Below, one piece after another: positions 45,699 to 62,354 of a DNA stretch of 64,000 nucleotides. This DNA comes from a virus (Duplodnaviria > Caudoviricetes). The stretch's first letter is position 1; each line of letters starts with the position of its first letter. A model generated the notes under the pieces. That model saw nothing but the letters and a program-made list of their open reading frames with translations, was not told where the DNA came from and ran no database searches. A program made the position numbers and the translations under genes. The DNA lies in the IMG/VR virus record IMGVR_UViG_3300027917_004314, one strand, 5' to 3'.

Positions 45699-45774
45699 GA
45701 AACCTAACCTGCTCTGGGCAGGCTCCATGATAAGGACATGGAGGAAAGCGGTTCGAATCCGCTAGGTTTCGCCA
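45699..45774 (+). ncRNA. anticodon-less tRNA-like element, GRRACCT/AGGTTTC family, copy 1
   Basis: GAAACCT/AGGTTTC-G-CCA; CCTGC-TCTGG-GCAGG; 7-bp middle stem; AGCGG-TTCGAAT-CCGCT. Confidence 0.8.
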
Positions 45775-45790
45775 TCAACAAGGAGGAGGC

Positions 45791-46003
45791 ATGGAGGTCG
45801 AGCGTTTCAAGTGCCCAGGGTGTGGGGCACTAAACGCTCCTGAGATGCAATTGGAAAAGCATCGCGGGAGATTGGGCTTTTTGTTGTACCGCAAAGAGCC
45901 CGGTCGTGATGGGTTATACGGTGATGAGGACTGCGCTTTTGTGGCGTGGTGCGATAAGTGCCAGGCGACTCATCATGACGGGCGTTACTCTGCGCCGAAG
46001 TAA
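45791..46003 (+). CDS. zinc-ribbon protein
   Basis: GGAGG RBS; CPGC...CDKC. Confidence 0.7.
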   Translation: MEVERFKCPGCGALNAPEMQLEKHRGRLGFLLYRKEPGRDGLYGDEDCAFVAWCDKCQATHHDGRYSAPK

Positions 46004-46020
46004 CAACTAAGGAGGAGGTG

Positions 46021-46140
46021 GTGTACCACGTTTACATCGTATATTGCATCTTGGTATGGATGGAGTACACGATCACATCCATCATTCCTGGCGGTAGGAC
46101 TTTGGCGATCATCGATGCAATCTTCAAGAAACTTCTGTAG
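46021..46140 (+). CDS. small hydrophobic peptide (39 aa)
   Basis: AGGAGGAGG RBS, GTG start. Confidence 0.5.
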   Translation: MYHVYIVYCILVWMEYTITSIIPGGRTLAIIDAIFKKLL

Positions 46141-46153
46141 CCCGGATTTCAAC

Positions 46154-46231
46154 GAGACCTAGCCCATATGTTGGTGGGGACCGGCGATCTTTGATCGCGG
46201 TTGTGGTGGTTCGACTCCATCAGGTTTCGCT
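46154..46231 (+). ncRNA. anticodon-less tRNA-like element, family copy 2
   Basis: GAGACCT/AGGTTTC; middle stem with TTT loop; GGTGG-TTCGACT-CCATC. Confidence 0.75.
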
Positions 46232-46248
46232 GCCGAAAGGAGACGGTA

Positions 46249-46359
46249 ATGGAGTGTCCAGTGTGCAAAGGTAAGGGAGAAGTCTACAGCGCACTCCATG
46301 GTAAGAAGACGTGTCCTTGCTGCTTTGGGCGCGGGCATGTGAAGAAGCGTAACAGATAA
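46249..46359 (+). CDS. DnaJ-type zinc-finger microprotein (36 aa)
   Basis: CPVCKGKG...CPCCFGRG; AAGGAG RBS. Confidence 0.65.
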   Translation: MECPVCKGKGEVYSALHGKKTCPCCFGRGHVKKRNR

Positions 46360-46373
46360 AAGGAGGTATCCGT

Positions 46374-46580
46374 ATGGACAGACTAATCCGGTCTCTCGGA
46401 TGGCAACTTGGAAAGAAGTTGCCACAGGGACCCTTGTGGTCCGAAGAGCCTCACCAGGAGGACTTGGGAAGGCTCCGCGACCTGCTTGGCCGCGAGCCGA
46501 CCCTTGATGAGGCGGAGACCTTTTCCTGGGAGTTCAGGCTTTCCAGGAGAAGGCAGCAGGCGACGGCGTACCGGGGGTAG
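46374..46580 (+). CDS. hypothetical protein
   Basis: AGGAGG RBS. Confidence 0.65.
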   Translation: MDRLIRSLGWQLGKKLPQGPLWSEEPHQEDLGRLRDLLGREPTLDEAETFSWEFRLSRRRQQATAYRG

Positions 46581-46937
46581 AGTACAGCGACCGGCTAGCA
46601 TGGTGGTCTTGGGACCAAGCTGGTCGCGCCGGGTGCAGCAAATCAATCTGCCTTTAAAACAGGCTTCCACGCGCAAAATTGTGAGATCGCGCACAGTGTG
46701 GAAGTGCGCTAGAGTTCGGTTGCTGCATGGTAAAGTGGGAGGGTGCTTTACCAATCTATTGGCACCGGCGCGTTAGACTCTGCTCGTCTTTGGACGGCGT
46801 GAGGTGTGCCCTCGAAAGGGGTTTACAAGAGAAGGCTAACGCAGGTGGGATCGCAGGAAGTGGGGCATCTCACCAACTTTTAGTTTTGGGTATAATGTAA
46901 TTCGGCGTGGCAATTTGCGCATACTAGTATGCATTAT

Positions 46938-47014
46938 CGACCCTTAGCGCAGTCCGGTAGCGCAGGCGTCTTATAAGCGTCAGGTCCCGGGTTCGAATCC
47001 CGGAGGGTCGACCA
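46938..47014 (+). tRNA. tRNA-Ile (TAT), second divergent copy
   Basis: CGACCCT/AGGGTCG-A-CCA; loop CT-TAT-AA. Confidence 0.88.
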
Positions 47015-47027
47015 AAAGGAGGACAGG

Positions 47028-47288
47028 ATGAAGTACACTATCTTGCTGATAATTCTTGCCATTCGTTGGGCGGGTCGAGAGGAGGGCTTCGAACTGCCGA
47101 ATCTCATTTCCTATATCCTCACGGATATGCACTACCCTATTTCTCCACCAGAGGTGGGAAAGTTGTTGGGTGAGTTGGAGAGAGACGGGCTGATAGAAGA
47201 GGCTTCTGGGCGGCCGGATCTCACTAGCAAAGGGGATGAGTACCTCTCAGACAAGTTAAAAGAGAGGGCTCTACGTCTACACAGATAA
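47028..47288 (+). CDS. putative winged-helix protein
   Basis: SPPEVGKLLGELERDGLIEE...LTSKGDEYL; GGAGG RBS. Confidence 0.6.
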   Translation: MKYTILLIILAIRWAGREEGFELPNLISYILTDMHYPISPPEVGKLLGELERDGLIEEASGRPDLTSKGDEYLSDKLKERALRLHR

Positions 47289-47292
47289 AGAT

Positions 47293-47391
47293 GGGCCTGT
47301 AGCTCAATTGGTAGAGGGGAAACATGGGGTGACCGCAATGCCTAGTGGCCCCGCTGGGAGGTTGCCGGTTCGAATCCGGCCAGGTCCACTA
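47293..47391 (+). ncRNA. tRNA-like RNA with irregular extended anticodon arm
   Basis: GGGCCTG/CAGGTCC; GCTC-AATTGGTA-GAGG; GCCGG-TTCGAAT-CCGGC. Confidence 0.7.
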
Positions 47392-47591
47392 CAAAGAAAT
47401 TAACGGTTCCCACACGGATGATCCCTAGATCCTCATCTAACGTGGGTGTGTGTACAAAGGGTGCGCGATACAGGCAGCGTTGTTGGCGCATTGGCAGGCT
47501 CGGAGCTGTCCTGACACTTGCAGGTAGAGATCTTCCATTCTAGGGCTCTGGAAGCTCTACTATTGTTATTTTCCGTATAAGGAAGTGATTC

Positions 47592-47897
47592 ATGTGTAAG
47601 GATGGAACGACCGAGAGTGTCGAGCAGCTAAGGGACGAAGTGGTGAGACTACGTAAGTTGGAGTCTGACACCTGGAACTCTTACAAGAAACTGTGGAATA
47701 CCTACAGCCAGCTCAAAAAACATAACGACGAGGTGTGGGAAGCCTATGAGAAATCGCACCACGCGCATTGCAGTGATTTGGATGAGCTGAGTGAGCTACA
47801 TGCTAAGCAAAGGCGGCAGTGGTTATTTTTTGCGCTGGGTCTCTCAGTGTTCTGGGCCATCATCAACTTGCTAACGATATGGTATTATAGCTGCTAG
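47592..47897 (+). CDS. coiled-coil protein with C-terminal transmembrane helix
   Basis: Heptad-like N-terminus, hydrophobic C-terminus. Confidence 0.65.
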   Translation: MCKDGTTESVEQLRDEVVRLRKLESDTWNSYKKLWNTYSQLKKHNDEVWEAYEKSHHAHCSDLDELSELHAKQRRQWLFFALGLSVFWAIINLLTIWYYSC

Positions 47898-47926
47898 CTT
47901 TTTCACCCGACAACAAGGAGAGCATA

Positions 47927-48205
47927 ATGCTCATCAAAATTCCTAGCAGCAGACGTGGACACAGATGCGACTGCTGTCAGGTCGCAATTGCGACTCTTAA
48001 ACATACTTCTGGCATCTTTGTCCAGTTGGTGTGTGATGGGTGCAAGCAGCGCTATTGGTGGAGGTTTGGGATAGAGGACGTGGTGTCGGAAGACACGGAG
48101 TCCGTGTACCTCCGCAGCCCTGGGCTGCTAGGACTTAACGGAAGGACATACCGTTGCTGCAAGAAGTGCTGCAAGCGGTGGGAGAATTGTAGTTGTAGGA
48201 GGTAG
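47927..48205 (+). CDS. Cys-rich hypothetical protein
   Basis: AAGGAG RBS; several CxxC. Confidence 0.65.
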   Translation: MLIKIPSSRRGHRCDCCQVAIATLKHTSGIFVQLVCDGCKQRYWWRFGIEDVVSEDTESVYLRSPGLLGLNGRTYRCCKKCCKRWENCSCRR

Positions 48206-48206
48206 C

Positions 48207-48467
48207 GTGCGAGAGATACCGGAAAAACTTTGGACTACGTCCGACTGTTTAACATGTCGACACATAGGACGTTGGCCAGATGGGAACGTTGAAGTGCCAA
48301 GGATCTACGTCTACGCGGGCTGGATACGATGTGGTAGGTGGCGCAGTCCTGGACGCTGGGCATATCCAAACTCGCATGATGTGAAGTGGAACAGCGGGCC
48401 ATGCGGGGACTATGAGCGTTCTAGATGGGCCGCTTTTAGAAAGTGGCTTAAAACGATACTTAAGTAG
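48207..48467 (+). CDS. hypothetical protein
   Basis: GGAGG RBS, GTG start. Confidence 0.6.
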   Translation: MREIPEKLWTTSDCLTCRHIGRWPDGNVEVPRIYVYAGWIRCGRWRSPGRWAYPNSHDVKWNSGPCGDYERSRWAAFRKWLKTILK

Positions 48468-48473
48468 CAGTAT

Positions 48474-48548
48474 GGCCCTGTGGTCCAGCGGTCAGGACAT
48501 CGGTCTTTCACGCCGATAACCCGAGTTCGACTCTCGGCAGGGTCACTA
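48474..48548 (+). tRNA. tRNA-Glu (TTC)
   Basis: GGCCCTG/CAGGGTC; loop CT-TTC-AC; no encoded CCA. Confidence 0.9.
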
Positions 48549-48565
48549 AGGAAAGGAGGTACATC

Positions 48566-48784
48566 ATGTTTGACAGAGTGGATCTGCACGTGATGCATCC
48601 CGATGGAATGATGGAGCGAGTGGTTGTGCTTCATCAGGAGGCCGATTTCTTTGGTTTGGTGGCCAGGGAAATCGCCTTGCAAAAGAGGCGCGGTTGTGTC
48701 GTCAGGGGAGTTTCGACGGAGCAACATGCGCTCATCCCGCCGATGCTCATGCCGGGAAGACTTCCGGTTGGAGCCTTGAGATGA
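48566..48784 (+). CDS. hypothetical protein
   Basis: AGGAGG RBS. Confidence 0.65.
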   Translation: MFDRVDLHVMHPDGMMERVVVLHQEADFFGLVAREIALQKRRGCVVRGVSTEQHALIPPMLMPGRLPVGALR

Positions 48785-48845
48785 GTTTCTCCGTTCTCTA
48801 AAAACGGAGTGGTGGAGGAGCGACGGGGAAACCTGTCGCCCCCTT

Positions 48846-48949
48846 GGGCCAAAGATGCTGGTGCATCACGACCTCCGTAACGGGTCGTATGGAGTTCGAT
48901 TCTCTTTAGCCTTGGAGGTGTGCAGGTTCGATCCCTGCTTGGCCCACGG
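48846..48949 (+). ncRNA. tRNA-like RNA with two T-loop hairpins
   Basis: GGGCCAA/TTGGCCC; GGAG-TTCGATT-CTCT and GCAGG-TTCGATC-CCTGC. Confidence 0.6.
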
Positions 48950-49003
48950 CCCTCCCGTTAGCGACGGGGTCAGGGAATTACGAGCCGGTTAGCGACCGGC
49001 GCT

Positions 49004-49154
49004 GGTCGATTCTCGTGCTTCATGGTTTTTGGGACTTATTGTGTCCGCTGCAAGTTCTAGGCTATGACAGCAGGGAGAGCGCCTCTAGGATAGGCGGAGT
49101 TCTTGGCACTAGCCATGTGCAAACGGTGCGCAGGTTCAATTCCTGCATCGACCA
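49004..49154 (+). ncRNA. 151-nt structured RNA closed by a tRNA-like acceptor stem and T arm
   Basis: GGTCGAT/ATCGACC-A; GCAGG-TTCAATT-CCTGC; internal hairpins. Confidence 0.6.
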
Positions 49155-49258
49155 CTGAAGCTGGCAGGTAAGATGCTGAAGGTGTCCATAAGAAAGTACC
49201 AGCCTTTAGCAGGACGGAGTAGGACTTAAATCGGGCAGTTCCGCTGCCAGCTTCTTTT

Positions 49259-49608
49259 GGGCTCGACAAGGTTTCGACGTGGGTGATGGAGCATAGGGAT
49301 GCAAGCCGGGGATGGTTACAGCCTCGTTAAAAAGTGACCACACAATAACTTCCAACGAAGTTGAATTCAGAGCTGCTGCATAGCAGTTCCGTTCTACCAG
49401 CTCTCCCGTCTGTGACGGCTGGATAGAGCGACGACGGACAGGCTGGGCGCTAGCAATCTCGGCTAGCTAGCGCTAAGATTCAGTCGGGAAACGAAGTCAA
49501 GAAGCCTGCTGCTGGGCGTCTCGGTGGGTATACAAAACATCAGCTAAGCTTGTAGAATCTCGTGTGAAGCACTTGCGGACCCGGGTTCGATTCCCGGCGA
49601 GTCCACGA
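49259..49608 (+). ncRNA. ssrA: tmRNA, tag peptide (A)SNEVEFRAAA
   Basis: GGGCTCG/CGAGTCC with G3-U70; 5' GAC-AAGG-TTTCGAC; ATAACT resume context; tag ORF 49351-49383; T arm CCGGG-TTCGATT-CCCGG. Confidence 0.92.
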
Positions 49609-49729
49609 TGCGGTGTCGCTCTATGAGGGCACGCAGAAGTCCCACAGCCGTTTAGTCCGAGGTCTTCTATCCGTGACGGGATGGAAGTCGCTGTGGGCGT
49701 CAATTTTCGTACAACCAAAAGGAGGTCGC

Positions 49730-49933
49730 ATGGATACGAGGAAGCGTAGAAGACGCAACCAGCGTAGACGGGAGAGACGTCGTAAGCAGAGGGAGAGTCA
49801 GGGTCCGAAGAAGCTGACCAAGGGCCAGCGGAAGGCCCGCCTGCAGCAGTCGATGAAGCAGAGGCGCAAGTATCAGCGGCCAGACGGTGCTGACTACATC
49901 GTGTTGCTCGAAAGGCGGGCGTCGAAAGCGTAG
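49730..49933 (+). CDS. very Arg/Lys-rich small protein
   Basis: AAGGAGG RBS; RKRRRRNQRRRERRRKQR. Confidence 0.7.
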   Translation: MDTRKRRRRNQRRRERRRKQRESQGPKKLTKGQRKARLQQSMKQRRKYQRPDGADYIVLLERRASKA

Positions 49934-50027
49934 TAGCGCATGGCGGTAGGTCTACCACGGCAAGTGCGAGGCACTTTGCCCTGAGAAGTTCCAGCCCAAA
50001 TCCACCTTTGAATTTCCAGAGGAATAA

Positions 50028-50186
50028 ATGGACGCATACAGAGACTATTTGCGCCTGTTAAAACAATTACATAGACTAGATCGCAAAGGTAAGCTCGACT
50101 CTGACCAGGCAGAAGCTATTAGAGAAAAGATGGATGGCTTGTGGAGGGAGTTGAGCAACGAGGAGCGAAAGCGTGCTGGACGTTAG
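50028..50186 (+). CDS. hypothetical protein (52 aa)
   Basis: GAGGA RBS. Confidence 0.55.
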   Translation: MDAYRDYLRLLKQLHRLDRKGKLDSDQAEAIREKMDGLWRELSNEERKRAGR

Positions 50187-50203
50187 TCGGCGAAGCTTTC
50201 TGA

Positions 50204-50245
50204 GGGCGATTAGCTCAGTTGGAAGGGCGATTAGCTCAGTTGGAA
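50204..50245 (+). repeat. exact 21-nt tandem duplication of the tRNA-Val 5' end
   Basis: GGGCGATTAGCTCAGTTGGAA twice. Confidence 0.9.
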
Positions 50246-50300
50246 GAGCAATTGGTTTACACCCAATAGGTCGTAGGTTCGAGCCCTGCATCGCCTACCG
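50225..50300 (+). tRNA. tRNA-Val (TAC)
   Basis: GGGCGAT/ATCGCCT; loop TT-TAC-AC. Confidence 0.88.
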
Positions 50301-50321
50301 ACTCTAGCCAGGAGGATGAAA

Positions 50322-50489
50322 ATGAGTCGCATTGTGGCATTGATGAAGATGGCCATGTTCGCCATGAGGCAGATTCCTCGCCAGCTTCCTGAGCCTCGCG
50401 TAATTTCTCGCGAGGTTGTTGCGCAGGACAGCGATGGTCTGCGGCGCGTCGAGTTCAAGGAGACGAGGGTCTTGACCCTTTATTTCTAG
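50322..50489 (+). CDS. hypothetical protein (55 aa)
   Basis: GGAGG RBS. Confidence 0.5.
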   Translation: MSRIVALMKMAMFAMRQIPRQLPEPRVISREVVAQDSDGLRRVEFKETRVLTLYF

Positions 50490-50628
50490 GCTTGCGTCGT
50501 ACCCTAGCCGGCAGGTTGGGGAAAGCGTCTGGGCTTTGGTTTGGACATTTTCCCCAATCTGCAAGCATAATGCTCTCTGGCCCCCCTGGGTAACAGTGCC
50601 CAGGGGGGCAGTAACAGTGGAGGCTTTT

Positions 50629-50874
50629 ATGCTAATGAGAACTTTAAACAACGGCAATTCTGAGTGGCTGCCAGAGAAGGCATGTCGCATGGCTTATTGG
50701 AATCCTACGGCGGGGACCTTAATCCTTTCTGGTCCTGGTCCAGACAGCGGAGGCGAGGTCGTATCAAGATGCTACAAAGCGCCGGCTGACTGGGAAGGTC
50801 GCCCTCATAAGGTTGTCCGCGCATGGATGACCTATGGTCATTTGCCGCTTCGTCCTTGGCGTAGAGCGATATAG
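50629..50874 (+). CDS. hypothetical protein
   Basis: GGAGG RBS just after an 11-bp GC hairpin (50580-50609). Confidence 0.6.
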   Translation: MLMRTLNNGNSEWLPEKACRMAYWNPTAGTLILSGPGPDSGGEVVSRCYKAPADWEGRPHKVVRAWMTYGHLPLRPWRRAI

Positions 50875-50883
50875 GAGACAGTC

Positions 50884-51243
50884 ATGGTTCCTAAGAAAGG
50901 AGATATAGTTAGATTTAGTCCGGAATTCATCAAGTATTTGGAAGACCGTGGGGACTCTAGCTGGTTTGAGCGATGGTATACGGACCTAGAGATAGAGAGC
51001 TGTTGGCGCAGAACAAATGGCGACTATAGAGTGGCTTGGAAGAAGATAGCCGGCAAAGATAGCGACGATATTAACTATATAGGCCTTGATGAGAATGGGG
51101 TTGGTACACACTCTGGCGTTGTGATATTCGTCCCGGTCCATGCGTCGTCTTGCGCCACAGATCCTATCTGCACTGATTGCAACGTTCCAATGGAGTACGT
51201 GAACTTTGCTTACAAGTGCCCGCGATGTTGGAAGCGAGCTTAG
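50884..51243 (+). CDS. hypothetical protein with C-terminal zinc ribbon
   Basis: AGGAG RBS; CTDC...CPRC. Confidence 0.7.
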   Translation: MVPKKGDIVRFSPEFIKYLEDRGDSSWFERWYTDLEIESCWRRTNGDYRVAWKKIAGKDSDDINYIGLDENGVGTHSGVVIFVPVHASSCATDPICTDCNVPMEYVNFAYKCPRCWKRA

Positions 51244-51753
51244 GCTTCATAAGCTAGAGCGAACAGGAAAATTCTTAGAGTGCTGGTGCCTTTTTTCCGT
51301 TCTTTTGAACTAAAGACGGGTAAGCGCACATTCATCGTGCCGCCGAAGGAGAACGCGAAACAAGAACCTGGCACATACTGAGTTTCTTTTTTGCTTTAGC
51401 TTATGAGGCTTATATCTAGCGCGGTACAGTGCGGCTGAGGTCGCAGACATATGTCTATGCTCTGCCAGCCCTTTGGGCCATGAGAAGAGAGCTATACGGC
51501 TAGGATATAATAGCGGTTGAGGGTAAGTAAGTGTCCCCACAAAGAAGCGTCATTGGCTTTGTACCAGGCGTGAGAATGGTACGCACAACCGTGATGGGGT
51601 AGATCCGCTATATAAATAAACCCTACGAAGAGTTCAAGTGTTCATAGTTGCCCCAGATCAGAGTGGTGCGCCTCTTAAACCGGGTGCGGCAGTGAGCGAT
51701 GGCGGAAGACTCCATGCCGGATGATAGCCTAGACCGGCAATTTTTAGGAGAGT

Positions 51754-52275
51754 GTGATGGCTAAGAGACATTATTTTAGGATGTTGCGAACGGATACACA
51801 GATTGCTTCGATGTGGTCTTTATGTGGTATGGCTGCCGGTTATTCTGATGGAGCTAGTCACGTGGCCACAGATATAGAAAACACAGATTGTAAGACGTGT
51901 ATTCGTATTTATAATAAAGATAAACAAAGTACAGTTCATTATTTAGTTGGTAGATTAGGAGATCCTTCTCTATGTGGGCGTTGGGTAGGATCTGCGCTTC
52001 GAGAACTCGAACCTACTGGCAAAATAACGGAGTTGCCAGAACTGGTTACTTGTAAGACGTGTCTGAAGTATATGGGTGAGTCTACTTCAAACGATCTTCT
52101 ACATGTTATTGAATACTTTAAGAAGCAAAGCGACTCTTTCGATGTAGTACCTGTCGGTGGTGAAGTAGGAGCACTTAAAATAGTCACTGTTGAGGACAAT
52201 ATTGACAACCTTAGAGTGTTAGTAGATTTATTATTAGAGAGAGCACCTGGTTTCTTAAAGCCACCAAAGGAATGA
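51754..52275 (+). CDS. protein with two H..CG..CKTC zinc-binding modules
   Basis: SLCG...DCKTC and SLCG...VTCKTC; paralog of 60275. Confidence 0.72.
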   Translation: MMAKRHYFRMLRTDTQIASMWSLCGMAAGYSDGASHVATDIENTDCKTCIRIYNKDKQSTVHYLVGRLGDPSLCGRWVGSALRELEPTGKITELPELVTCKTCLKYMGESTSNDLLHVIEYFKKQSDSFDVVPVGGEVGALKIVTVEDNIDNLRVLVDLLLERAPGFLKPPKE

Positions 52276-52325
52276 GTGTTGATAGAATTTGGTCTGAAGG
52301 GGTTCGAATCCTCTATCACTCGCCA
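52274..52325 (+). ncRNA. minimal tRNA-like element lacking an anticodon arm
   Basis: GAGTGTT/ATCACTC-G-CCA; small D-like hairpin with TGG loop; AGGGG-TTCGAAT-CCTCT. Confidence 0.6.
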
Positions 52326-52344
52326 ACTTTAGAAGGAGTTTCGC

Positions 52345-52554
52345 ATGAAGTTCTTCGCCGTGCATTACTCTGCTGGTAATAGCATGGACGTTAGGATAAG
52401 TCTTCGACTTAACCTGCATACGTCTATTGCTTCTGACATCGGGATTCTCGTTGCCGGTCAAAACAGGTATCTGCTCTGTACGTGCAGCGACCGTGCGGCG
52501 AAGTCGCTGTTAGGTTTGTTGCAGCGGCATCCTCAGTTTCACATGGTTTCGTAG
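52345..52554 (+). CDS. hypothetical protein
   Basis: AAGGAG RBS. Confidence 0.6.
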   Translation: MKFFAVHYSAGNSMDVRISLRLNLHTSIASDIGILVAGQNRYLLCTCSDRAAKSLLGLLQRHPQFHMVS

Positions 52555-52570
52555 TAACGGAAAGAAGGCA

Positions 52571-52807
52571 ATGAATAGACTGTTTCGTAGAATCGATGAC
52601 TGGTGTCGAGGTGTAGCTGCTCACATCATTGTGGCCCCCATGAGATTGTTCGATAATGGAGAAGCGAACATTCCTACCGAGATAGCGTTCTTGTGGTTTC
52701 TCATGATCGTGTGTCTGCCGGTCACTGGCCCCATATCGCTGCCTTTTTGGGCAGTGGCATATGTGGCTAGCAAGGCTGCCGGGCCGGAAGAAGAGGATGT
52801 GGGATGA
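52571..52807 (+). CDS. hypothetical membrane protein
   Basis: Hydrophobic segment. Confidence 0.6.
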   Translation: MNRLFRRIDDWCRGVAAHIIVAPMRLFDNGEANIPTEIAFLWFLMIVCLPVTGPISLPFWAVAYVASKAAGPEEEDVG

Positions 52808-55467: not shown

Positions 55468-55908
55468 ATGCCTTTTAGAGTTGAGGCGAGAGAGAGATAC
55501 ATGAATGGTCGCCTCGTTGTCCAGATTTACGAGGACGACGATGGGCCGTTCTCCGGAATGCCGTATTGTACGCTGAGCACCAATGTACCTGGAGTGGAGC
55601 TGGAAGACGACGAGTTCGTACTGAACCATGACCTTAACGGTCCTTTGTTCGACGAACTCAGGACCGAGATCCTGGCGAAGTGGTGTGAGGACACCGGTAA
55701 GCGGTGTAGTTACGGGTTCGTTCGCGACCAGCCGATTTGGAGGGTCGCGTTAGACGATACTAAGGTATCAGCTGATAAACTCAAGGCAGTTCCTTTTCCT
55801 GAATGCGGCGGCAAATGTGCAGCCGTCGAATACCTCGGTGTGGGCGAGTGTGAGGCTGTTTGTCCACATAAGTTTGATGGCAATGGTGATCCTATAGCCG
55901 ATTTTTAA
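55468..55908 (+). CDS. hypothetical protein, N-terminal half DUF4313-like
   Basis: PYCTLSTNV..ELEDDEFV....TGKRCSYGF pattern; AAGGAGG RBS. Confidence 0.55.
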   Translation: MPFRVEARERYMNGRLVVQIYEDDDGPFSGMPYCTLSTNVPGVELEDDEFVLNHDLNGPLFDELRTEILAKWCEDTGKRCSYGFVRDQPIWRVALDDTKVSADKLKAVPFPECGGKCAAVEYLGVGECEAVCPHKFDGNGDPIADF

Positions 55909-56107
55909 AGATAGGTTTACGGTGACAATAGACAGGTAAAAGATCTCGATGGCAAGACTTGGGGCGTGTGCAACTTTATCACCTGCAAAGCTTGCGACGG
56001 CGATGATGTCTTGGACCGCTGGGTTCAGGCCAACGAGGAAGCCCACCAGAGATTTTGGTGGCTATTATGATCACGCTAAGGTGACGCAATGAGTAAAGGG
56101 ACTGAAG

Positions 56108-56227
56108 ATGAGAAAAATCGTTAAGCTTATTCGCAGGCTGTGGTTTTGTGATCCACCTCCCTTTGCTCGCTGCGAGATTTGTGGCGAGGACATTGAGGAG
56201 TGCAACACAAGAGATCATATGCGTTGA
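56108..56227 (+). CDS. small Cys-containing peptide (39 aa)
   Basis: CEIC motif; stops 1 nt before tRNA-like copy 4. Confidence 0.45.
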   Translation: MRKIVKLIRRLWFCDPPPFARCEICGEDIEECNTRDHMR

Positions 56228-56228
56228 T

Positions 56229-56297
56229 GGGACCTATCTGCTAGTGGAGCAGGAGTCTTTATGACTCGAGGCTGGTTCGAATCCAGTAGGTTTCACT
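56229..56297 (+). ncRNA. anticodon-less tRNA-like element, family copy 4
   Basis: GGGACCT/AGGTTTC; CTGCT-AGTGG-AGCAG; GAGTC-TTTAT-GACTC; GCTGG-TTCGAAT-CCAGT. Confidence 0.8.
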
Positions 56298-56313
56298 GAC
56301 TGAGGAGGATACA

Positions 56314-57084
56314 ATGGAGAAGACAGTGGACACTGCGTTCGTTTTCATTTGCTGCTTTGGCTTCAAATCTCACTACTGCCCATCGGATCTCGCTGATGGC
56401 TTGGTAGAGGACTTGGAGTCCAGGGAAGCTGACATCAGGTTCATCGAGAGCACGGACAAGGGCTACATCGACCTGCCCGGGATGTGCATGGCTGACAGGC
56501 CGATGGAGGAGGTGGTGCTTGGGGAGTTCAGACTTTCCATTCCGTCCCAGGACTTCGCATCCATGCTGAGTCGACTCAAGGCTGCTCCGCTAAGGAAATT
56601 TGCGGACGGCAGCGAGTACTTCAAACTTCACGGCTTCCATCAGTGCCTCGTGGTGAGCCCGGAGCAGCGCGATGAGCTTATCCGCATCATGGACGAGATG
56701 GTGGCCGACGCCGAGAAGCGAGCCGATGAGGCGGTTGTGGAGTTTGGCAAGCGCATGGAGAAAGTCGTCGAGAATCGTAATGTGTGCATCCTCGGCGACT
56801 CGGAAAGGAAGACGGTTGTACACCACGATGGCGGTGAGGAGTATCCCGAGGGAGTCACGATGGGGGATGGATCGGTCATGAAATATCGACCTCTCGCCAC
56901 CATCAAGTGCATGTACTGTGGTAGGCTTGCTACCATGGCGAAGTTTCAGGACGGCTCTGTCGGCGGCATCCATGAGACTCCAGAGTGCGCCGAGTTCGCG
57001 GCCATGGACGTGTTGGTCTTTTTCCGCGAGAATCGGAAGAAGATGGAACAAGAGGTTGACGAGGGTAAGTTCAAGCCCAATTAG
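56314..57084 (+). CDS. hypothetical protein
   Basis: GAGGAGG RBS; GC3-rich. Confidence 0.78.
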   Translation: MEKTVDTAFVFICCFGFKSHYCPSDLADGLVEDLESREADIRFIESTDKGYIDLPGMCMADRPMEEVVLGEFRLSIPSQDFASMLSRLKAAPLRKFADGSEYFKLHGFHQCLVVSPEQRDELIRIMDEMVADAEKRADEAVVEFGKRMEKVVENRNVCILGDSERKTVVHHDGGEEYPEGVTMGDGSVMKYRPLATIKCMYCGRLATMAKFQDGSVGGIHETPECAEFAAMDVLVFFRENRKKMEQEVDEGKFKPN

Positions 57085-57315
57085 GAGGCTACGTTGCGCA
57101 GTGGTAGGCACAAAAAGGTAATAGAGGCACAACCGTTTGGAGTCGGCAAATGGCTGTTATTCTTGGAATGCGGCCATGAGCTGATTCTCCCAAGGCGCAA
57201 AAGGAAGAGTGCGCCGAGGACGGCGGCATGCAAAGAGTGCCGCAGAAAGCCCTGAGTTGTTGAGTGCCGCTTGTACTTTAGCGAGTGCAAGCGATACTAA
57301 ACAAAGGAGGCAGAG

Positions 57316-57582
57316 ATGAAGGTAGCGTTTTGCGACAAGTGTAAGAAGCGGCTGCCAGGTGAGTTGTGGCATGGCCCACCGTGTCAGTGTCCTGGCAGCG
57401 AGAAGATCACCCAGATGTGGGAGAAAATCGGCGAAGCAACACTCGGAATTCCGGCCAGCGAGGACAACGATCTCACGCCTCTCCAGGGTTTAAGCGTGCT
57501 GGCGTACGTGGAGCGGAAGAGGAGAGACCCCGAGGAGTGGTGGAGGGAGCAGTACCTCATCGCCCAGATCAACAAGATGTGA
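57316..57582 (+). CDS. hypothetical zinc-finger protein
   Basis: AAGGAGG RBS; CDKC...CQC. Confidence 0.68.
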   Translation: MKVAFCDKCKKRLPGELWHGPPCQCPGSEKITQMWEKIGEATLGIPASEDNDLTPLQGLSVLAYVERKRRDPEEWWREQYLIAQINKM

Positions 57583-57589
57583 GGTCCAG

Positions 57590-58009
57590 ATGCGAAATAA
57601 AGACATTCGTGGTTCAGTTTGCTACGACTGGAGAGACCGGATCGAACTGGTGATCGACAACGCTGGGCGGTGGCATCTGTGTCGTATTGTCCATATGGAC
57701 CTCGTGCCAATCGAGGACGTAACGGACAAGCTAGACGAGCTAAACCAGGAGCGAGTCTCCGTTGCTTGGCAGTACGGCCAGATTGACAATCACATCAAAG
57801 CTATGAGGGCTCGCGAGAACTTCCTGGGGTGCCTGAGAGAGCTTGAGGCTGAAGCCTTCTGGCAGAAGGAGAGACGTAATTTCGGCAATGCTGCCGAGTA
57901 CCAGAGGCTGGTCAAGAAATACGAGTCCGTCGCGGACGCTGTATGGACACGAGAGTGGTATGAGGGCTTGGAGATCATGCAATCGGTACTGGCGCGACTA
58001 GAGCCGTAG
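57590..58009 (+). CDS. hypothetical protein
   Basis: GAGGT RBS. Confidence 0.68.
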   Translation: MRNKDIRGSVCYDWRDRIELVIDNAGRWHLCRIVHMDLVPIEDVTDKLDELNQERVSVAWQYGQIDNHIKAMRARENFLGCLRELEAEAFWQKERRNFGNAAEYQRLVKKYESVADAVWTREWYEGLEIMQSVLARLEP

Positions 58010-58019
58010 GAGGCGAAAG

Positions 58020-58274
58020 ATGAAGCTATATTACGTGAGGCACCAAGCAGAGTGTGTCAGATTTGATACGGTGTCAATCGACTCTGGAGTCGCAAAGCGT
58101 TCGTGGGCCATATGTGGTAGAGATGCTGCTGGCAATCCTTGTATCATTAAAGGAGAGGGTAGCATTGCCGGCATCGCGAGTTTTCGCGAGACGATGTCTG
58201 TACATGAGGTGCCACGCGAGCAGTACATCAGGGCGTTGGAGGCGGCGACCAGATTGGCTCCGCCCGCGAGCTAG
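58020..58274 (+). CDS. hypothetical protein
   Basis: AGGAGG RBS. Confidence 0.65.
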   Translation: MKLYYVRHQAECVRFDTVSIDSGVAKRSWAICGRDAAGNPCIIKGEGSIAGIASFRETMSVHEVPREQYIRALEAATRLAPPAS

Positions 58275-58285
58275 GAGACATAGAC

Positions 58286-58903
58286 TTGTCTAAAAGATAT
58301 CGCAGACACTTATACCTGGCCCCTCCTAGCAATTTTTGTTTTTCGTACTGTGGAATATCTATTTCTCCATCTTGGAGATTGTCGTCAAGAAACTGCGAGT
58401 GGTGTAAGTTATGCTTAAAGTACGCGACTGCAAAGAATTCCTTTGCGGCGACCACGTTGAATGTAGCAGGGCGATCGATGTTTATAGTTGCCAAGACGAA
58501 CATATATTATTTGAATCCATCTAAATTCTTGAATGCTGCTACTCAGTTAGATACCATTGCACATGGTCAGATGGTATACAGAGGTATTCCATATCCATCG
58601 AGTAGTTGTGGTTTCCCATCTGCCGTTGCGCGATTGGGTGGCTTTATTATTATAACCACAGATGGCCGACACGGACGAGGCGATTGGTTTGAATTCAGAC
58701 AATGGATGTACGAGATCTTTTGGTCCATGCTTACAGCGGATGCTGACAGCCTAGAGTGTAAATGTGCTTGGGAAGTATTAACGAGTCGCGAGAACAGCGA
58801 CCCTGGCGATGCATTAGTTGGGTTGATGCACGTTGGCAATACTGGACCGATAACAGACCATTTTAAGGAATGGGCGAAAGCATTTGGTCATACTATATTA
58901 TGA
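58286..58903 (+). CDS. hypothetical protein with N-terminal H..CG..CxxC module
   Basis: AGGAG RBS, TTG start. Confidence 0.65.
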   Translation: MSKRYRRHLYLAPPSNFCFSYCGISISPSWRLSSRNCEWCKLCLKYATAKNSFAATTLNVAGRSMFIVAKTNIYYLNPSKFLNAATQLDTIAHGQMVYRGIPYPSSSCGFPSAVARLGGFIIITTDGRHGRGDWFEFRQWMYEIFWSMLTADADSLECKCAWEVLTSRENSDPGDALVGLMHVGNTGPITDHFKEWAKAFGHTIL

Positions 58904-58961
58904 TTGTTGAGTGCCTCGTGGGTTCTGAGGAACCCAGGCGGGACCTAACAAAGGAGGAGAG

Positions 58962-59204
58962 ATGTCCAAGACCAGAAGGCAGCGTATCGAGGCGAAGCTG
59001 ACCAGTGCGAAGGAGAACTTGAAGAGCCAGGTCGAGGTGATGGCGAAGAAAAACCGCAAGCAGGCCGGGATGCTCGCTGACCGGAACGGGACCCTCCGGG
59101 TCCTCGTTTCCATGCTCACTCCCGAGCAGCACGCCGAGATCGAGAAGCTCGATGACGAGAAGCACGCGGAGGTCAAGAAGCTGGTGAAGGAGTTCATGCC
59201 GTAG
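58962..59204 (+). CDS. helical hypothetical protein, GC3-rich
   Basis: AAGGAGGAG RBS. Confidence 0.72.
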   Translation: MSKTRRQRIEAKLTSAKENLKSQVEVMAKKNRKQAGMLADRNGTLRVLVSMLTPEQHAEIEKLDDEKHAEVKKLVKEFMP

Positions 59205-59211
59205 CGGGGCA

Positions 59212-59284
59212 GGGGATGTAGCTCAGACGGCAGAGCCCCACGATAACGTGGAGGGCGTAGGTTCGACTCCTACCATCCCCTCTA
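59212..59284 (+). ncRNA. tRNA-like RNA with a 4-nt anticodon loop (degenerate Ile-GAT-like)
   Basis: GGGGATG/CATCCCC; canonical D and T arms; CCACG-ATAA-CGTGG. Confidence 0.75.
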
Positions 59285-59309
59285 AGCAGGCGACTAGACG
59301 AAAGGTCTG

Positions 59310-60248
59310 GTGGAAAGGAAGAACGTGATGCCTTCTCCTAGGCTTGAAAAAGGTGGAGTATCAGATAAATCAGACTGGGTGGTCAATTGCAACACGCACA
59401 AGTGTCCCTTTGGGTGTGTCTATTGTGCCAGCAATGGTCTCAAAAATATCAGGGGAAAGAAGTTCAGTTGGGATGAGGGGAAGGTAACAATTCGCCGTTT
59501 AGATAGACATTGTGGCACAAACATATCCGAAAGTCTTTGGGAAATCAGGCCGGGGGACGTAGTTCAAGTTCCCAGCTCTCATGACATAACCTCATGCAAG
59601 ATGGCCATGAAACTGGTAAAGCCAATCAGAGAGATTTTGGAGCGCGACGGCATAGTAGTGGTCCACTCGAAAATGAGTCTCAGCGTAGCTAAGATAATAG
59701 GATCTGAATTATACAAGTACCGGAAGAAAAACCTAGTAATTCAGATCACTATCGGAACAACTAACGCGAAGCTGATGTCTGCTGTTGAACCAAAGGCTCC
59801 AGGGTTGCAGGAAAGGCTTGGGTCTCTACAGTTTCTTTACAAGCTCGGGTTTAGGACTGGTGTGGCGTGCACGCCAGCGCTAGATGTCGATGTAAAGAGT
59901 ACGCACAGAATGGTTTCACCGTATACCAAAATGCGGTTTCATATAGGATCGATTAGGCTGGTGGGGAACGGCGCACTCGGCGACCGCGCGATGCATGCTT
60001 TTAATCGTGCATATGGTTGCCGGGATGCCAATGTCGCCAACGTACATCCGGAGAGTTGTAAGGCAAGAAAAATACTATCCGATTGGCTGTACAGTTACGG
60101 CGACCTCTTCGACGCCAATTGGGCCGAACGGGTGATTGGCTTTGCAAAGCGGCGTAAGAAGGTTGTGTGCGAACGAGACGTATATGACCTTACCAAGGCT
60201 TGGCACTTCTTTGTGGCACCACGGTATACGCTGTTTGATTTTCTATAG
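59310..60248 (+). CDS. radical SAM protein, spore photoproduct lyase (SplB/COG1533)-like
   Basis: CPFGCVYC; VEPKAP...RL..L..L...GFRTGV..TP. Confidence 0.75.
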   Translation: MERKNVMPSPRLEKGGVSDKSDWVVNCNTHKCPFGCVYCASNGLKNIRGKKFSWDEGKVTIRRLDRHCGTNISESLWEIRPGDVVQVPSSHDITSCKMAMKLVKPIREILERDGIVVVHSKMSLSVAKIIGSELYKYRKKNLVIQITIGTTNAKLMSAVEPKAPGLQERLGSLQFLYKLGFRTGVACTPALDVDVKSTHRMVSPYTKMRFHIGSIRLVGNGALGDRAMHAFNRAYGCRDANVANVHPESCKARKILSDWLYSYGDLFDANWAERVIGFAKRRKKVVCERDVYDLTKAWHFFVAPRYTLFDFL

Positions 60249-60274
60249 ATTTTGCTTAGTGCTGGAGAGAAGTA

Positions 60275-60742
60275 ATGGCAAACAAGAAGGTTCATTGGCG
60301 AGCGATGCCACGGCGATTTGGAAGAGAGGGCTCGCCTGATACTATGTGTGGTCACTACGGTACTACTACCAACATACTGAAGCGAGTAACGTGCAAGACC
60401 TGTATTAGGATTCTAAAAAAGGCTGGGAAAGAGATTCCAGGTCCTATGCCAGACCTTCATTTATATAGCCCATCGTTTAGCCTTAGACATGGGGCAAACG
60501 GCAAGGCTCAGCTTGTCATCACGACTGTCCCAAAGGATCCTGACGATCTGCGCCCCTTTATGGATTTGGTCCTAGAAAGGGGATACGATTACATACTGCC
60601 GCCGGCAGTTGCAAAAGAAGTAAATAAAGAGACGGCCAAGAAGAAGGTAGCCAAGAAGAAAGTGGTTAAGAGGAAGAATGTAGGGAAAAGAGCCATAGGG
60701 GGTAGAAGGAGAAGGACATTTGTGCCAGTCGTTTATCGCTGA
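60275..60742 (+). CDS. H..CG..CKTC zinc-module protein with basic tail, paralog of 51754
   Basis: VHW...TMCG...VTCKTC; DDLRPFMDLVLERG resembles DNLRVLVDLLLERA. Confidence 0.72.
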   Translation: MANKKVHWRAMPRRFGREGSPDTMCGHYGTTTNILKRVTCKTCIRILKKAGKEIPGPMPDLHLYSPSFSLRHGANGKAQLVITTVPKDPDDLRPFMDLVLERGYDYILPPAVAKEVNKETAKKKVAKKKVVKRKNVGKRAIGGRRRRTFVPVVYR

Positions 60743-60819
60743 CATGTCCAAGTTCCCGTTCGGCGGCCAGTCGATTTTGTGTCGCTACTTTCTTGTATCC
60801 CATGAAAAAGGAGAGTGCA

Positions 60820-61047
60820 ATGATTCCAAATACGCATTACTATGAGACGCCAGACGGCGAGTTTACCTACGTCACGAAGCGTCTGTTTCTCGCATACCAT
60901 TCCGAGGAAGAGTGGAAGGTTTTCTCGAAGTGGATGACGGGGCAGACCGTCGGGCTAGTAGGTGGTCAGCAGGCGATCTACTCATGGGACTACGAGAGGT
61001 GGGCTCGTCAGGGAAAGCAGACCGAGCAAGGACCGGATTGGGATTAA
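60820..61047 (+). CDS. hypothetical protein
   Basis: AAGGAG RBS, ATG 60820. Confidence 0.68.
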   Translation: MIPNTHYYETPDGEFTYVTKRLFLAYHSEEEWKVFSKWMTGQTVGLVGGQQAIYSWDYERWARQGKQTEQGPDWD

Positions 61048-61072
61048 AGAGGCTTGAGAAACAATACAAGTT

Positions 61073-61133
61073 GGCCGCTGAACGTTAAGTGGTAACGTGT
61101 CAGTAATATCGGTTCGATTCCGAACGGCGGCCC
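61073..61133 (+). ncRNA. minimal tRNA-like element lacking an anticodon arm
   Basis: GGCCGCTG/CGGCGGCC; CGTTA-AGTGG-TAACG; TCGG-TTCGATT-CCGA. Confidence 0.68.
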
Positions 61134-61152
61134 TAGAGAAAGGAGGCCAATA

Positions 61153-61326
61153 ATGGCGCGAAGGAAGAGGAGCTTCATCAGCTGGCTGATTTTGATCGTG
61201 GTCCTCACCATGGCGGTTGTGGGTGGTTACCACCTCTACAACAGCGACACGGGGCAGGCGACCTCGCGAGTGGTGAAGGAGGCGGTGAAGGCCGGTCACA
61301 ACCAGGCAAAGAAGGAGATCGACTAG
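61153..61326 (+). CDS. small single-pass membrane protein (57 aa)
   Basis: AAGGAGG RBS; basic N-terminus plus TM helix. Confidence 0.65.
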   Translation: MARRKRSFISWLILIVVLTMAVVGGYHLYNSDTGQATSRVVKEAVKAGHNQAKKEID

Positions 61327-61338
61327 AAAGGAGGCCTA

Positions 61339-61569
61339 ATGAAACGTTATCGTGCGTGGAAGGTTCACTGTACCAAGAGTACATTCACCGAGGCAAACGC
61401 TGTGCGGGACGAGTTGCTGGCCAGCGATGAGCCGATTTATCTGGAGGAGCATACCTTGTGTCCTTCGGACAAGCCGGTGAAGGTGCGGAGGAAGCCAAAC
61501 GGCACCTTCGACGTGAAGGTTCTGACCATCGACAAAGAGGTGGAGGACGACGATGCCCAAGGAGTTTGA
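61339..61569 (+). CDS. hypothetical protein
   Basis: AAGGAGG RBS. Confidence 0.68.
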   Translation: MKRYRAWKVHCTKSTFTEANAVRDELLASDEPIYLEEHTLCPSDKPVKVRRKPNGTFDVKVLTIDKEVEDDDAQGV

Positions 61570-62008
61570 CGTTCTACTCATATCCGTCATGGGGAGCTGC
61601 AGCGGCGAAGCCTGTGTGAACGGGATGAGGAGTTCTACCACCGGTCTCCACGGGGTTGAAGAGAACTTCGAGAGAGTCAAATCGGGTGGATGGATCGTAG
61701 ACCTCCGCGCCGTCCAAGACCCCGTGGTGAAGGTCATCAGGGCCCCGATGTTGGGGTTGAACCTGCAGCCGGACGAAGTGGACAGGTTGTCGAAGGAAGA
61801 ACTCGACAGCAGCCTCGTCGCTCAGGCTGTAAAGTCTCAGCCCGGTAATCCTCTCGGGGCCATCGTGCGTCTCGAAGAGGCGTGCAGGGAGCAGGGTTTC
61901 TCGTCTCTCGACACTGTGGGCATTGACATATGGCTGCAGTACTGGAGGGAGAACGGCGCGAAGATCGGAAGGGTGGACGACGGCGAGGTGAAGTGGGAAG
62001 GAGGCTAA
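61553..62008 (+). CDS. hypothetical protein
   Basis: GGAGG RBS; GC3-rich. Confidence 0.7.
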   Translation: MPKEFDVLLISVMGSCSGEACVNGMRSSTTGLHGVEENFERVKSGGWIVDLRAVQDPVVKVIRAPMLGLNLQPDEVDRLSKEELDSSLVAQAVKSQPGNPLGAIVRLEEACREQGFSSLDTVGIDIWLQYWRENGAKIGRVDDGEVKWEGG

Positions 62009-62010
62009 GA

Positions 62011-62271
62011 ATGCTGAGGTACTGTCTGGTCATTCGGGAGAGCGAGTCGAGCGAAGACCACATCATGGCGACGGCGCCCAAAACGTTCGGGTCTGTGAAG
62101 GAGGCGTACGAGCACTTCTCTTCTTGCCTGAGCGGGCTGAGTGTTCATCCTTCTTTGCCCGAGAGCATGCCGTGTGGCGGATTCCTTGTTGCCGACGCCC
62201 CAGACTTCCCTGGAAGATTCTGGGAGATCGTAGGGGTGTTGAGTAGCGAGACGCCGCGCGACCTGACATAG
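62011..62271 (+). CDS. hypothetical protein
   Basis: AAGGAGG RBS, ATG 62011. Confidence 0.62.
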   Translation: MLRYCLVIRESESSEDHIMATAPKTFGSVKEAYEHFSSCLSGLSVHPSLPESMPCGGFLVADAPDFPGRFWEIVGVLSSETPRDLT

Positions 62272-62282
62272 ACTGCCAAGAC

Positions 62283-62354
62283 GGAACCTATCCGACAATG
62301 GGTCGGGGCATATAGAGTATGCTGAAGAGGGTTCAACTCCCTCAGGTTTCGCTA
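62283..62354 (+). ncRNA. anticodon-less tRNA-like element, family copy 5
   Basis: GGAACCT/AGGTTTC; CCGAC-AATGG-GTCGG; GGCATA-TAGAG-TATGCT; GAGGG-TTCAACT-CCCTC. Confidence 0.8.

Follow-up and report, generated by a model that had tools for sequence, protein, structure and literature searches.

Five tRNA-like elements were analysed in a stretch of 64,000 nucleotides (nt) of viral DNA (IMG/VR record IMGVR_UViG_3300027917_004314; Duplodnaviria, Caudoviricetes), which is referred to here, at its full length, as the window. The source is a giant phage (the protein cluster of one window gene has a longest contig of 460,879 bp), and the window DNA was present in marine-sediment metagenomes. A previous sequence-only reading had described the elements as a dispersed family of anticodon-less tRNA mimics that punctuate early operons. 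The five sites were confirmed, all of them on the + strand, and one follows directly on a gene for a protein with a predicted RNA-binding domain:

45128-45691, + strand: gene of a 187-amino-acid protein with an N-terminal TRAM-fold RNA-binding domain, directly 5' of the element at 45699.
45699-45771 (to 45774 with CCA), + strand: member 1, 71.3 bits; acceptor GAAACCU/AGGUUUC; D arm CCUGC-UCUGG-GCAGG; middle arm of 7 base pairs (bp) with a 7-nt loop; spacer GAA; G73 followed by CCA.
46154-46229, + strand: member 2, 40 bits; acceptor GAGACCU/AGGUUUC, including a G3-U70 pair; bulged middle hairpin of 10 bp, loop UUU; discriminator G73; RNAfold minimum-energy structure a cloverleaf.
54276-54340 (to 54343 with CCA), + strand: member 3, 71.9 bits; acceptor GAAACCU/AGGCUUU with G1-U72 and an A4-C69 mismatch; middle arm of 3-4 bp with loop (C)UUUUA(G); G73 followed by CCA.
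56229-56295, + strand: member 4, 80 bits; acceptor GGGACCU/AGGUUUC with G2-U71 and G3-U70; middle arm of 5 bp with a 5-nt loop; A73.
62283-62351, + strand: member 5, 84.9 bits; acceptor GGAACCU/AGGUUUC; middle arm GGCAUAU-AGA-GUAUGCU; G73.

The anatomy previously reported for these elements was largely recovered. The five copies share a 7-bp acceptor of the form GRRACCU/AGGUUUC, whose sole variant is the AGGCUUU strand at 54276 (one A-C mismatch), a discriminator that is G73 in four copies and A73 in one, and a canonical T arm with the loop UUC(G/A)A(A/C)U. A short D-like stem (5 bp, loop of 5-6 nt) was present throughout; the GG said to end its loop was found in four of the five, and at 46154 the last G abuts the first G of the 3' strand of the stem. 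The spacer read GAN in four copies (GAA, GAU, GAG and GAA) and was 2 nt long at 46154, while the G3-U70 pair reported for two copies was located at 46154 and 56229. Furthermore, position 8 was A in all five, the D arm and the middle arm abutted with zero nt between them, the middle hairpin ranged from 3 to 10 bp, and a CCA was encoded after G73 in the copies at 45699 and 54276. The claim that the middle arm lacks an anticodon-loop pattern held for the family as a whole and failed for 45699 and 62283, both of which allow a drawing with a 7-nt loop that has U33 and a position-37 purine. Three of the five copies were called by ARAGORN, as tRNA-Leu(AAG), tRNA-Lys(UUU) and tRNA-Ser(AGA), so that some annotation pipelines would label them as tRNAs.

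A covariance model built from four copies retrieved the held-out fifth (46154) with 40 bits and an E value of 6e-11, and in this family model the held-out copy outscored every true tRNA of the window. A crude search for T arms enclosed by a 7-bp acceptor stem gave 17 matches in the window against 0.08 in shuffled sequences. The RNAfold minimum-energy structure was the cloverleaf in four of the five copies (z = -2.8 to -4.4); the copy at 54276, folded alone, gave no cloverleaf (z = -0.9) and may be the weakest of the five.

Relatives were detected in four other phage or metagenome contigs, two of them by pattern scan (G001 and G002) and two through homologs of the 187-amino-acid protein (L072 and L073). 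In IMG/VR, a pattern combining acceptor and T arm matched two true members, those of G001 and G002, and otherwise ordinary tRNAs; the same pattern returned only ordinary tRNAs or weak matches in JGI metagenomes and no member in GTDB genomes, and no relative of the region or of an element was found among the INPHARED cultured phages (megablast and blastn). G001, a 301-kb contig, is a true relative, with syntenic neighbouring genes (53-60% amino-acid identity) and a single element directly 3' of a homolog of the 187-amino-acid protein. G002, a fragment of 41.8 kb with 36% G+C, comes from an essentially unrelated phage and has a tRNA array and one member ending in G73-CCA. On L073, a metagenome contig of 1951 nt, a truncated member lies 8 nt after the stop codon of a homolog of the 187-amino-acid protein gene, and a full member at 359-427 (77 bits; acceptor AAGACCU/AGGUCUU) is flanked by genes unlike those of 62283 and has a middle arm almost identical to that of 62283, with the "anticodon" changed from AGA to AAA. 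In L072, an element starting 5 nt after the stop codon combined a family-style D arm and a T arm with a paired but different acceptor (GAGUCUG/CAGACUC) and no middle arm; as this site is the positional ortholog of 45699, where the full cloverleaf is present, the arm-less form occurs at one orthologous site.

Pair statistics come from six sequences, the five copies and the G001 ortholog, aligned with the covariance model, and eight-member counts refer to full members; MAFFT misaligned the copy at 46154, and the covariance-model alignment together with a manual parse was used for pair counts. In the six sequences, 96% of pair cells were paired, as compared with 27-50% when the partners were slid by 1-3 columns, and compensatory double changes were detected in four of five D-stem pairs, five of five middle-stem pairs and three of five T-stem pairs, values that no shuffle equalled. 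Stem sequences thus vary yet stay paired, as had been noticed for the five copies, with covariation among both paralogs and homologs; covariation across homologs, whose absence had been named beforehand as a possible refutation, was present in the D, T and middle stems. In the eight full members, the 136 pairs of the acceptor, D and T stems comprised 122 Watson-Crick pairs, 13 G-U pairs and 1 mismatch. Since the 13 G-U pairs are A-C mismatches on the opposite strand, the fold belongs to the sense (coding) strand, as would be the case for an RNA.

On these grounds, the elements are very probably real, selected and non-decoding RNAs derived from tRNA. It could be argued instead that they are decaying tRNA pseudogenes devoid of present function, considering that they lie in a fast-turnover tRNA island, that the copy at 54276 has an acceptor mismatch and folds poorly alone, and that three copies are still called as tRNAs by ARAGORN. 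However, decay is hard to reconcile with the single mismatch among the acceptor, D and T pairs and the numerous compensatory changes, with a T loop and a D-loop GG that are intact in all members, with an ortholog conserved beside a protein of only 46-53% identity, or with a middle arm that is still a paired hairpin despite its change in length, and this explanation is disfavoured as highly unlikely.

The pattern of conservation was informative as to what selection retains. All eight full members had a 7-bp acceptor, a 5-bp T stem, the T loop UUCRANY and the D-loop GG, along with A8, a 5-bp D stem closed by a loop of 5-6 nt, a middle arm set directly against the D arm, and a spacer that measures 3 nt, or 2 nt in a single member. 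The discriminator was G in five members and A in three, and CCA was encoded in three of the eight. An extension of the acceptor to 8 bp by complementarity between positions -1 and 73, possible in five of the eight, was not beyond chance and was rejected. Across the family, the middle arm is dispensable: its length lay anywhere between 0 and 10 bp, and its loops, of 3-7 nt, had no pattern in common. Average pairwise identity was 0.84 both for the acceptor stem and for the T loop, and fell to 0.49 in the D stem and 0.58 in the T stem; the contrast between the acceptor and the other stems is partly ascertainment, as members were sought and delimited by their acceptor sequence, and the acceptor proved able to covary in L072 and in L073 359-427. 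In summary, the 12-bp acceptor/T stack, the T loop, the D-loop GG and the discriminator base are kept, whereas decoding features are not, and the canonical core (U8, nucleotide 26 and a variable loop of 4-5 nt) is replaced. It is these features that RNase P, RNase Z, the CCA-adding enzyme and other elbow-recognising proteins read. The retention of parts used by end-processing enzymes, next to an anticodon arm that may be shortened, lengthened or lost, fits an end-processing signal.

The same intact acceptor stem, discriminator and T arm, with CCA encoded in some copies and G3-U70 in two window copies, would also suit RNAs that are matured, CCA-tailed and charged by an anticodon-independent synthetase (of the Ala, Ser or Leu type), and then used outside decoding or as mimics of charged or uncharged tRNA for a sensor. 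This possibility is considered very improbable. G3-U70 occurs in only two of the eight members, which makes alanylation, suggested earlier for two copies, unlikely as a property of the family; the discriminator is mixed; the long variable arm needed by bacterial seryl-tRNA synthetase is missing; and A8 replaces the near-universal U8 in a rearranged core, while many synthetases are sensitive to core shape. Moreover, arm-less relatives are found at orthologous sites.

With regard to position, the five window copies start 7, 13, 1, 1 and 11 nt after the upstream stop codon, respectively, in agreement with the range previously given, and the distance from discriminator to next ATG was 19, 19, 26, 18 and 14 nt, with a Shine-Dalgarno sequence before the ATG. 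When window and relatives were considered together, nine of ten elements started within -2 to +16 nt of a stop codon: -2 in G002 (where the TGA overlaps G1-A2), 5 in L072, and 8 and 16 in L073. The remaining case was G001, with a gap of 45 nt that is due to a 12-nt tandem repeat; there, a 12-nt unit formed by the end of the TRAM-protein gene, stop codon included (gactgattagtt), is present three times in tandem before the element (G001 L014 8737-8790(-)). Where the downstream spacer was long (G001, G002 and L073 359-427), the element stayed at the upstream stop and not at the next start. In G002, it was followed by a sigma-70-like promoter with a good match (TTGATT-17-TATAAT).

The 187-amino-acid protein encoded upstream of 45699 was the product of the only ORF (open reading frame), out of approximately 54 listed on the + strand at 42-64 kb, that is common to the window and G001; the two versions were 53% identical, and identity among element-bearing homologs ranged from 46 to 53%. 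A word-based protein search returned only the protein itself and a peptide-pattern locus search returned nothing, while an exhaustive HMMER profile search detected six homologs (P0002-P0007). The feature next to the 3' end of the gene is a family member in three cases (window, G001 and L073) and the arm-less version with covarying acceptor in a fourth (L072); among three more distant homologs, L074 has no spacer, and L075 and L076 have a plain hairpin at the place of the element. The protein family (45128-45691; G001 L014 8777-9331(-)) is found in tRNA islands and had no prior family assignment. Pfam TRAM matched three of its seven members (best E value 3.5e-7), and a PDB profile search with the family gave two stand-alone archaeal TRAM proteins only, both weak. 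The AlphaFold model (pLDDT 91.7) was closest by Foldseek to the TRAM domains of RlmCD, RumA, MiaB and RimO (E values 4e-3 to 5e-2; root-mean-square deviation of about 2 Å for MiaB). In this protein family, the N-terminal TRAM fold is succeeded by a long helix and, at the C terminus, by the conserved motif LPPWGV.DRG..I.TDSYTD. TRAM domains in modification enzymes bind tRNA or rRNA, and the co-inheritance of this gene with a tRNA-like RNA suggests a protein-RNA pair, as judged from genomic context; yet the gene adjoins only one of the five copies, and its distant homologs lack the element.

Two arm-less mini elements were also detected in the window:

52274-52325, + strand: acceptor, D arm, T arm and G73-CCA, with no middle arm.
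61074-61132, + strand: 23.7 bits; acceptor GCCGCUG/CGGCGGC; 6-bp D stem with loop AGUGG.

The first two bases of the former are the last two of the upstream TGA stop codon. The latter has no middle arm, an 11-nt linker and a short T arm, and the D arms of both are in the style of the family.

The genomic setting of the family is a distinct part of the window. Bases 1-42,000 have a G+C content of approximately 39% and encode PrkA, SpoVR, ribonucleotide reductase, PhoH, a DnaB-like helicase and a type IB topoisomerase (at 3665-8248 and 35979-38636, homologs of PrkA and SpoVR and a protein with a eukaryotic-type topoisomerase IB catalytic core were observed). The G+C content rises from approximately 39% to approximately 52% at a boundary located at 42000-44000 and stays high over 44000-64000, up to the window end; in G001, a high-G+C patch was observed in the same island, built of pentapeptide-repeat genes. 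From about 44 kb on, the window consists of a single-strand array of small ORFs without known families, together with tRNA genes and a tmRNA (transfer-messenger RNA) gene. Comparison of the flanking and other 44-64 kb ORFs with Pfam and PHROGs gave almost no matches, and promoter-like and terminator-like sites were not enriched in 44-64 kb. From the same-strand layout and this lack of enriched sites we infer that the elements would be part of a longer operon transcript; the "early" timing attributed to these operons is an assumption of the sequence-only reading. A 36-amino-acid ORF directly 3' of the element at 46154 (46249-46359) resembled DUF5351, of the CxxCxGxG zinc-ribbon type (26.9 bits, cut-off 27).

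The island contains six ordinary tRNAs, which sit in the same kind of spacer as the family elements, and tRNA shapes that are unable to decode are in the majority. Apart from the elements already listed, the following features were recorded in the window:

42681-42781: tRNA body with a large insertion in or around the anticodon arm, scoring 46.9 bits as tRNA.
47293: tRNA body with a large insertion in or around the anticodon arm.
48846-48945: tRNA-like element with two successive T-arm hairpins.
49259-49608: a real tmRNA.
59212-59281: tRNA-scoring gene (56 bits as tRNA) with anticodon arm CCACG-AUAA-CGUGG and a 4-nt loop.

The anticodon loop at 59212-59281, being only 4 nt long, cannot decode. 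At 48846-48945, the 5' strand GGGCCAA pairs perfectly with UUGGCCC, which lies only past the second T-arm hairpin. The anticodon region of 42681-42781 contains a perfect 34-nt hairpin (42711-42744) with ends, GGGACCUAU...AUAGGUUUU, that correspond to the family's acceptor helix; this hairpin could be the relic of an inserted family member, or the helix itself could be a recognised motif. In addition, the first 21 nt of tRNA-Val(UAC) (50225-50297) are duplicated in tandem directly upstream (50204-50224).

Further tRNA-like features were observed in the relatives. In G001, a 58-nt tRNA-like element without D arm (G001 L014 9716-9773(-)) and a 40-nt acceptor/T minihelix with a 9-nt linker (G001 L014 10913-10952(-)) were present, and in G002 a 67-nt tRNA-like element with no ARAGORN call (40227-40293(-); L069-L071). 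L073 (1-1951) carries three tRNA-like elements (9-52, 359-427 and 1928 to the end), between which lie an 83-amino-acid ORF, a GNAT acetyltransferase gene and the TRAM-protein gene. A link through the acetyltransferase was rejected, given that the L073 protein and the window ORF 55468-55908 share only two short cysteine-rich motifs and the latter has no GNAT domain.

Several of these observations bear on whether the inverted ends GRRACCT...AGGTTTC function as DNA, marking recombination or cassette borders in the manner of integron attC sites or T4-type regulatory cassettes, with an incidental or ancestral tRNA look. The ORFs flanking the five copies were not paralogous in an all-against-all BLASTP comparison, so that recent duplication of larger cassettes was rejected; a copy resembling 62283 lies between different genes in L073; and a hairpin with the same ends lies inside the anticodon region of 42681-42781. 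In a near-identical strain from a second marine-sediment sample (one contig, depth 2), moreover, positions 51751-52343, corresponding to exactly one ORF, the arm-less element at 52274-52325 and the next ribosome-binding site, are replaced by 10 nt, GAGGTTTATA. Nevertheless, that deletion has its left border away from any element, the 44-64 kb ORFs that were scanned yielded neither an integrase nor a recombinase domain, and the ends do not match attC cores, whose sites read RYYYAAC/GTTRRRY. The G-U pairs make the fold strand-specific, and the tRNA-like conservation of T loop and D-loop GG makes sense only for RNA recognition. A role at the DNA level is therefore regarded as very improbable.

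The elements would be better accounted for as cis-acting, tRNA-derived modules at ORF 3' ends, which shape mRNA ends and release a small tRNA-like RNA. Under this proposal, they would be transcribed within the small-gene operons, immediately 3' of an ORF; host RNase P would cut at the 5' side, and the 3' side would be trimmed by RNase Z, or by RNase E followed by exonucleases. Cleavage would define the 3' terminus of the upstream message along with the 5' terminus of its downstream neighbour; a further product would be a stable, tRNA-like RNA measuring approximately 65-75 nt. Such a system could have arisen from operon tRNAs excised by host enzymes, some of which lost decoding and were kept as their excision or structure serves the neighbouring messages, above all the upstream 3' end. 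As true tRNAs occupy the same kind of spacers, tRNA processing of island transcripts must occur anyway, and the kept acceptor/T minihelix and D-T elbow, the dispensable anticodon arm and the post-stop position fit the idea of punctuation and processing put forward earlier. The tie to ORF 3' ends is also seen in the plain hairpins that take the place of the element in distant homologs and in the joint loss of an ORF and its arm-less element in the depth-2 strain contig. Judging from this combination of features, the elements are probably processed by RNase P and 3' enzymes, and the cis-acting proposal as a whole is given about an even chance.

Some observations weigh against that proposal. An RNase P cut would leave the upstream mRNA ending 1-13 nt past its stop codon with no protective hairpin, an end that looks destabilising unless rapid turnover is intended. 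Most gene junctions of the island have no element, and hence the elements do not constitute a general punctuation system. The copy at 54276, weakened by its mismatch, may be decaying. Finally, the conservation of the acceptor sequence exceeds what a pure shape signal needs, which hints at a partner that reads the sequence, or at a role in trans for the released RNA.

The last point leads to the alternative that the elements are trans-acting mimics of the tRNA body, serving as decoys or sponges for a tRNA-binding factor (a defence nuclease or a CCA-end enzyme) or as partners of a phage protein such as the TRAM one, with the operon location needed for expression only. Acceptor identity (0.84, vs. 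0.49-0.58 in the other stems) is consistent with this idea, as are the retention of G73 or A73, the CCA encoded in three of the eight members, the co-inheritance of the TRAM-fold gene with one element in four contigs, and the predominance of non-decoding shapes over canonical tRNAs in the island. In addition, the acceptor GAAACCU/AGGUUUC is found in real phage tRNAs, namely tRNA-Lys(UUU) in L030 and L054 and tRNA(CAU) in L016 and L036, and three middle loops (CUUUUAG, UCUUUGA and CUUUAUG) have the look of relics of an anticodon loop with UUU; PrrC, PARIS and other anticodon nucleases target tRNA-Lys(UUU). Yet nucleases that read the anticodon loop would not be bound by a decoy lacking it, neither a defence gene nor a target can be named, and the decoy claim of the sequence-only reading is not supported and leaves the tie to ORF 3' ends unexplained. 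Neither would action in trans explain the plain hairpins of the distant homologs or the sufficiency of the arm-less version. Acceptor conservation, as stated above, is partly ascertainment, the acceptor can covary (L072 and L073 359-427), and the TRAM gene adjoins one copy in five. Action in trans is hence rated as possible but unlikely, and we are equally doubtful of its fuller form, in which anticodon-less tRNA bodies, with the acceptor as identity mark, would act with the TRAM protein, either titrating or inhibiting a host tRNA-directed defence or sensor, or as a non-ribosomal acceptor. Independently of function, the shared acceptor and the remnant-like loops make it plausible that the family descended from a phage tRNA, possibly tRNA-Lys.

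If the elements are processed like tRNAs, as the cis-acting proposal holds, giant phages would use host tRNA-maturation enzymes to shape their own messages, a strategy comparable to those known from mitochondria and a few eukaryotic long non-coding RNAs. The excess of non-decoding shapes over real tRNAs also implies that counts of the ARAGORN type overstate the decoding capacity of phage tRNA islands. Furthermore, with its size of approximately 70 nt, variants that lack the arm in nature and an RNA-binding protein inherited along with one member, the family is a compact object for studying the tRNA body outside translation.

As regards known RNA families, a match in Rfam had been named beforehand as a possible refutation, and none reached the gathering score at the five loci. 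Below threshold, 46154 gave 22.1 bits with tRNA (RF00005; cut-off 29), the other four having no tRNA match, 56229 gave 22.2 bits with tRNA-Sec, and 62283 gave 19.7 bits with Tymo_tRNA-like (RF00233; cut-off 40, E value 3.8). There was no match to tmRNA at the five loci, nor to YrlA (RF02553) in a permissive search, the latter matching weakly only over the true tRNAs at 43654-43764. No paper on anticodon-less tRNA-like elements between phage genes was found in the full-text literature searched, and to this extent the description of the system as undescribed stands; it has to be qualified in that the true tRNAs of the same island use the same kind of spacer. Three bacterial tRNA-mimic families reported in a 2026 preprint have motifs other than those of the phage family.

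With the canonical tRNA (RF00005), the elements have in common the 7-bp acceptor, the 5-bp T stem, the T loop, G18-G19, the discriminator with or without CCA, and the location in island spacers; they differ in having A8 instead of U8, a D stem of 5 bp instead of 4 bp, no nucleotide 26 and a 3-nt variable region, and in lacking a fixed 5-bp anticodon stem with a 7-nt loop, the middle arm being 3-10 bp long and missing in L072. The tRNA-like domain of tmRNA has G3-U70 and no D stem and is joined to a tag-coding pseudoknot RNA, whereas G3-U70 is present in two of the eight members and all have a 5-bp D stem. In the bacterial Y RNA YrlA, a long Ro-binding helix replaces the anticodon stem; an acceptor/D/T module on a non-decoding RNA is common to both, and no Ro/Rsr gene was seen here. 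The tRNA-like structures of viruses have a pseudoknotted acceptor at the 3' end of the genomic RNA, in contrast to the plain 7-bp helix of these elements. Among phages, T4 encodes the stable RNAs C and D in its tRNA gene cluster, and phi80 M3 RNA and the P1/P7 C4 RNA precursor are RNase P substrates. These too are small phage RNAs other than tRNAs; they are transcribed along with tRNAs or matured by RNase P by way of a tRNA-like acceptor end, yet they are single genes and not a dispersed post-ORF family.

The closest parallels to the proposed function are eukaryotic. In mascRNA and its MEN-beta counterpart (MALAT1 and NEAT1; RF01684), an RNase P cut makes the upstream 3' end, and RNase Z and CCA addition yield a small stable RNA. 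A cloverleaf with a poorly conserved anticodon arm is common to these RNAs and to the phage elements, but theirs is a eukaryotic nuclear long non-coding RNA, and the protective triple helix found upstream there had no counterpart here. The t-elements of plant mitochondria are non-decoding tRNA-like folds within longer transcripts that have been proposed as cis-signals for RNase P and/or RNase Z in the generation of mRNA 5' and 3' ends (Forner et al. 2007, PMC1920247). As in plant t-elements and in the tRNA punctuation of animal mitochondria, the phage folds are tRNA-like (and, as in plants, non-decoding) and adjoin the predicted ends of messages. The t-elements are organellar and their ends have been mapped experimentally, while the phage elements, known from sequence, constitute a family with a conserved acceptor that is located 3' of ORFs.

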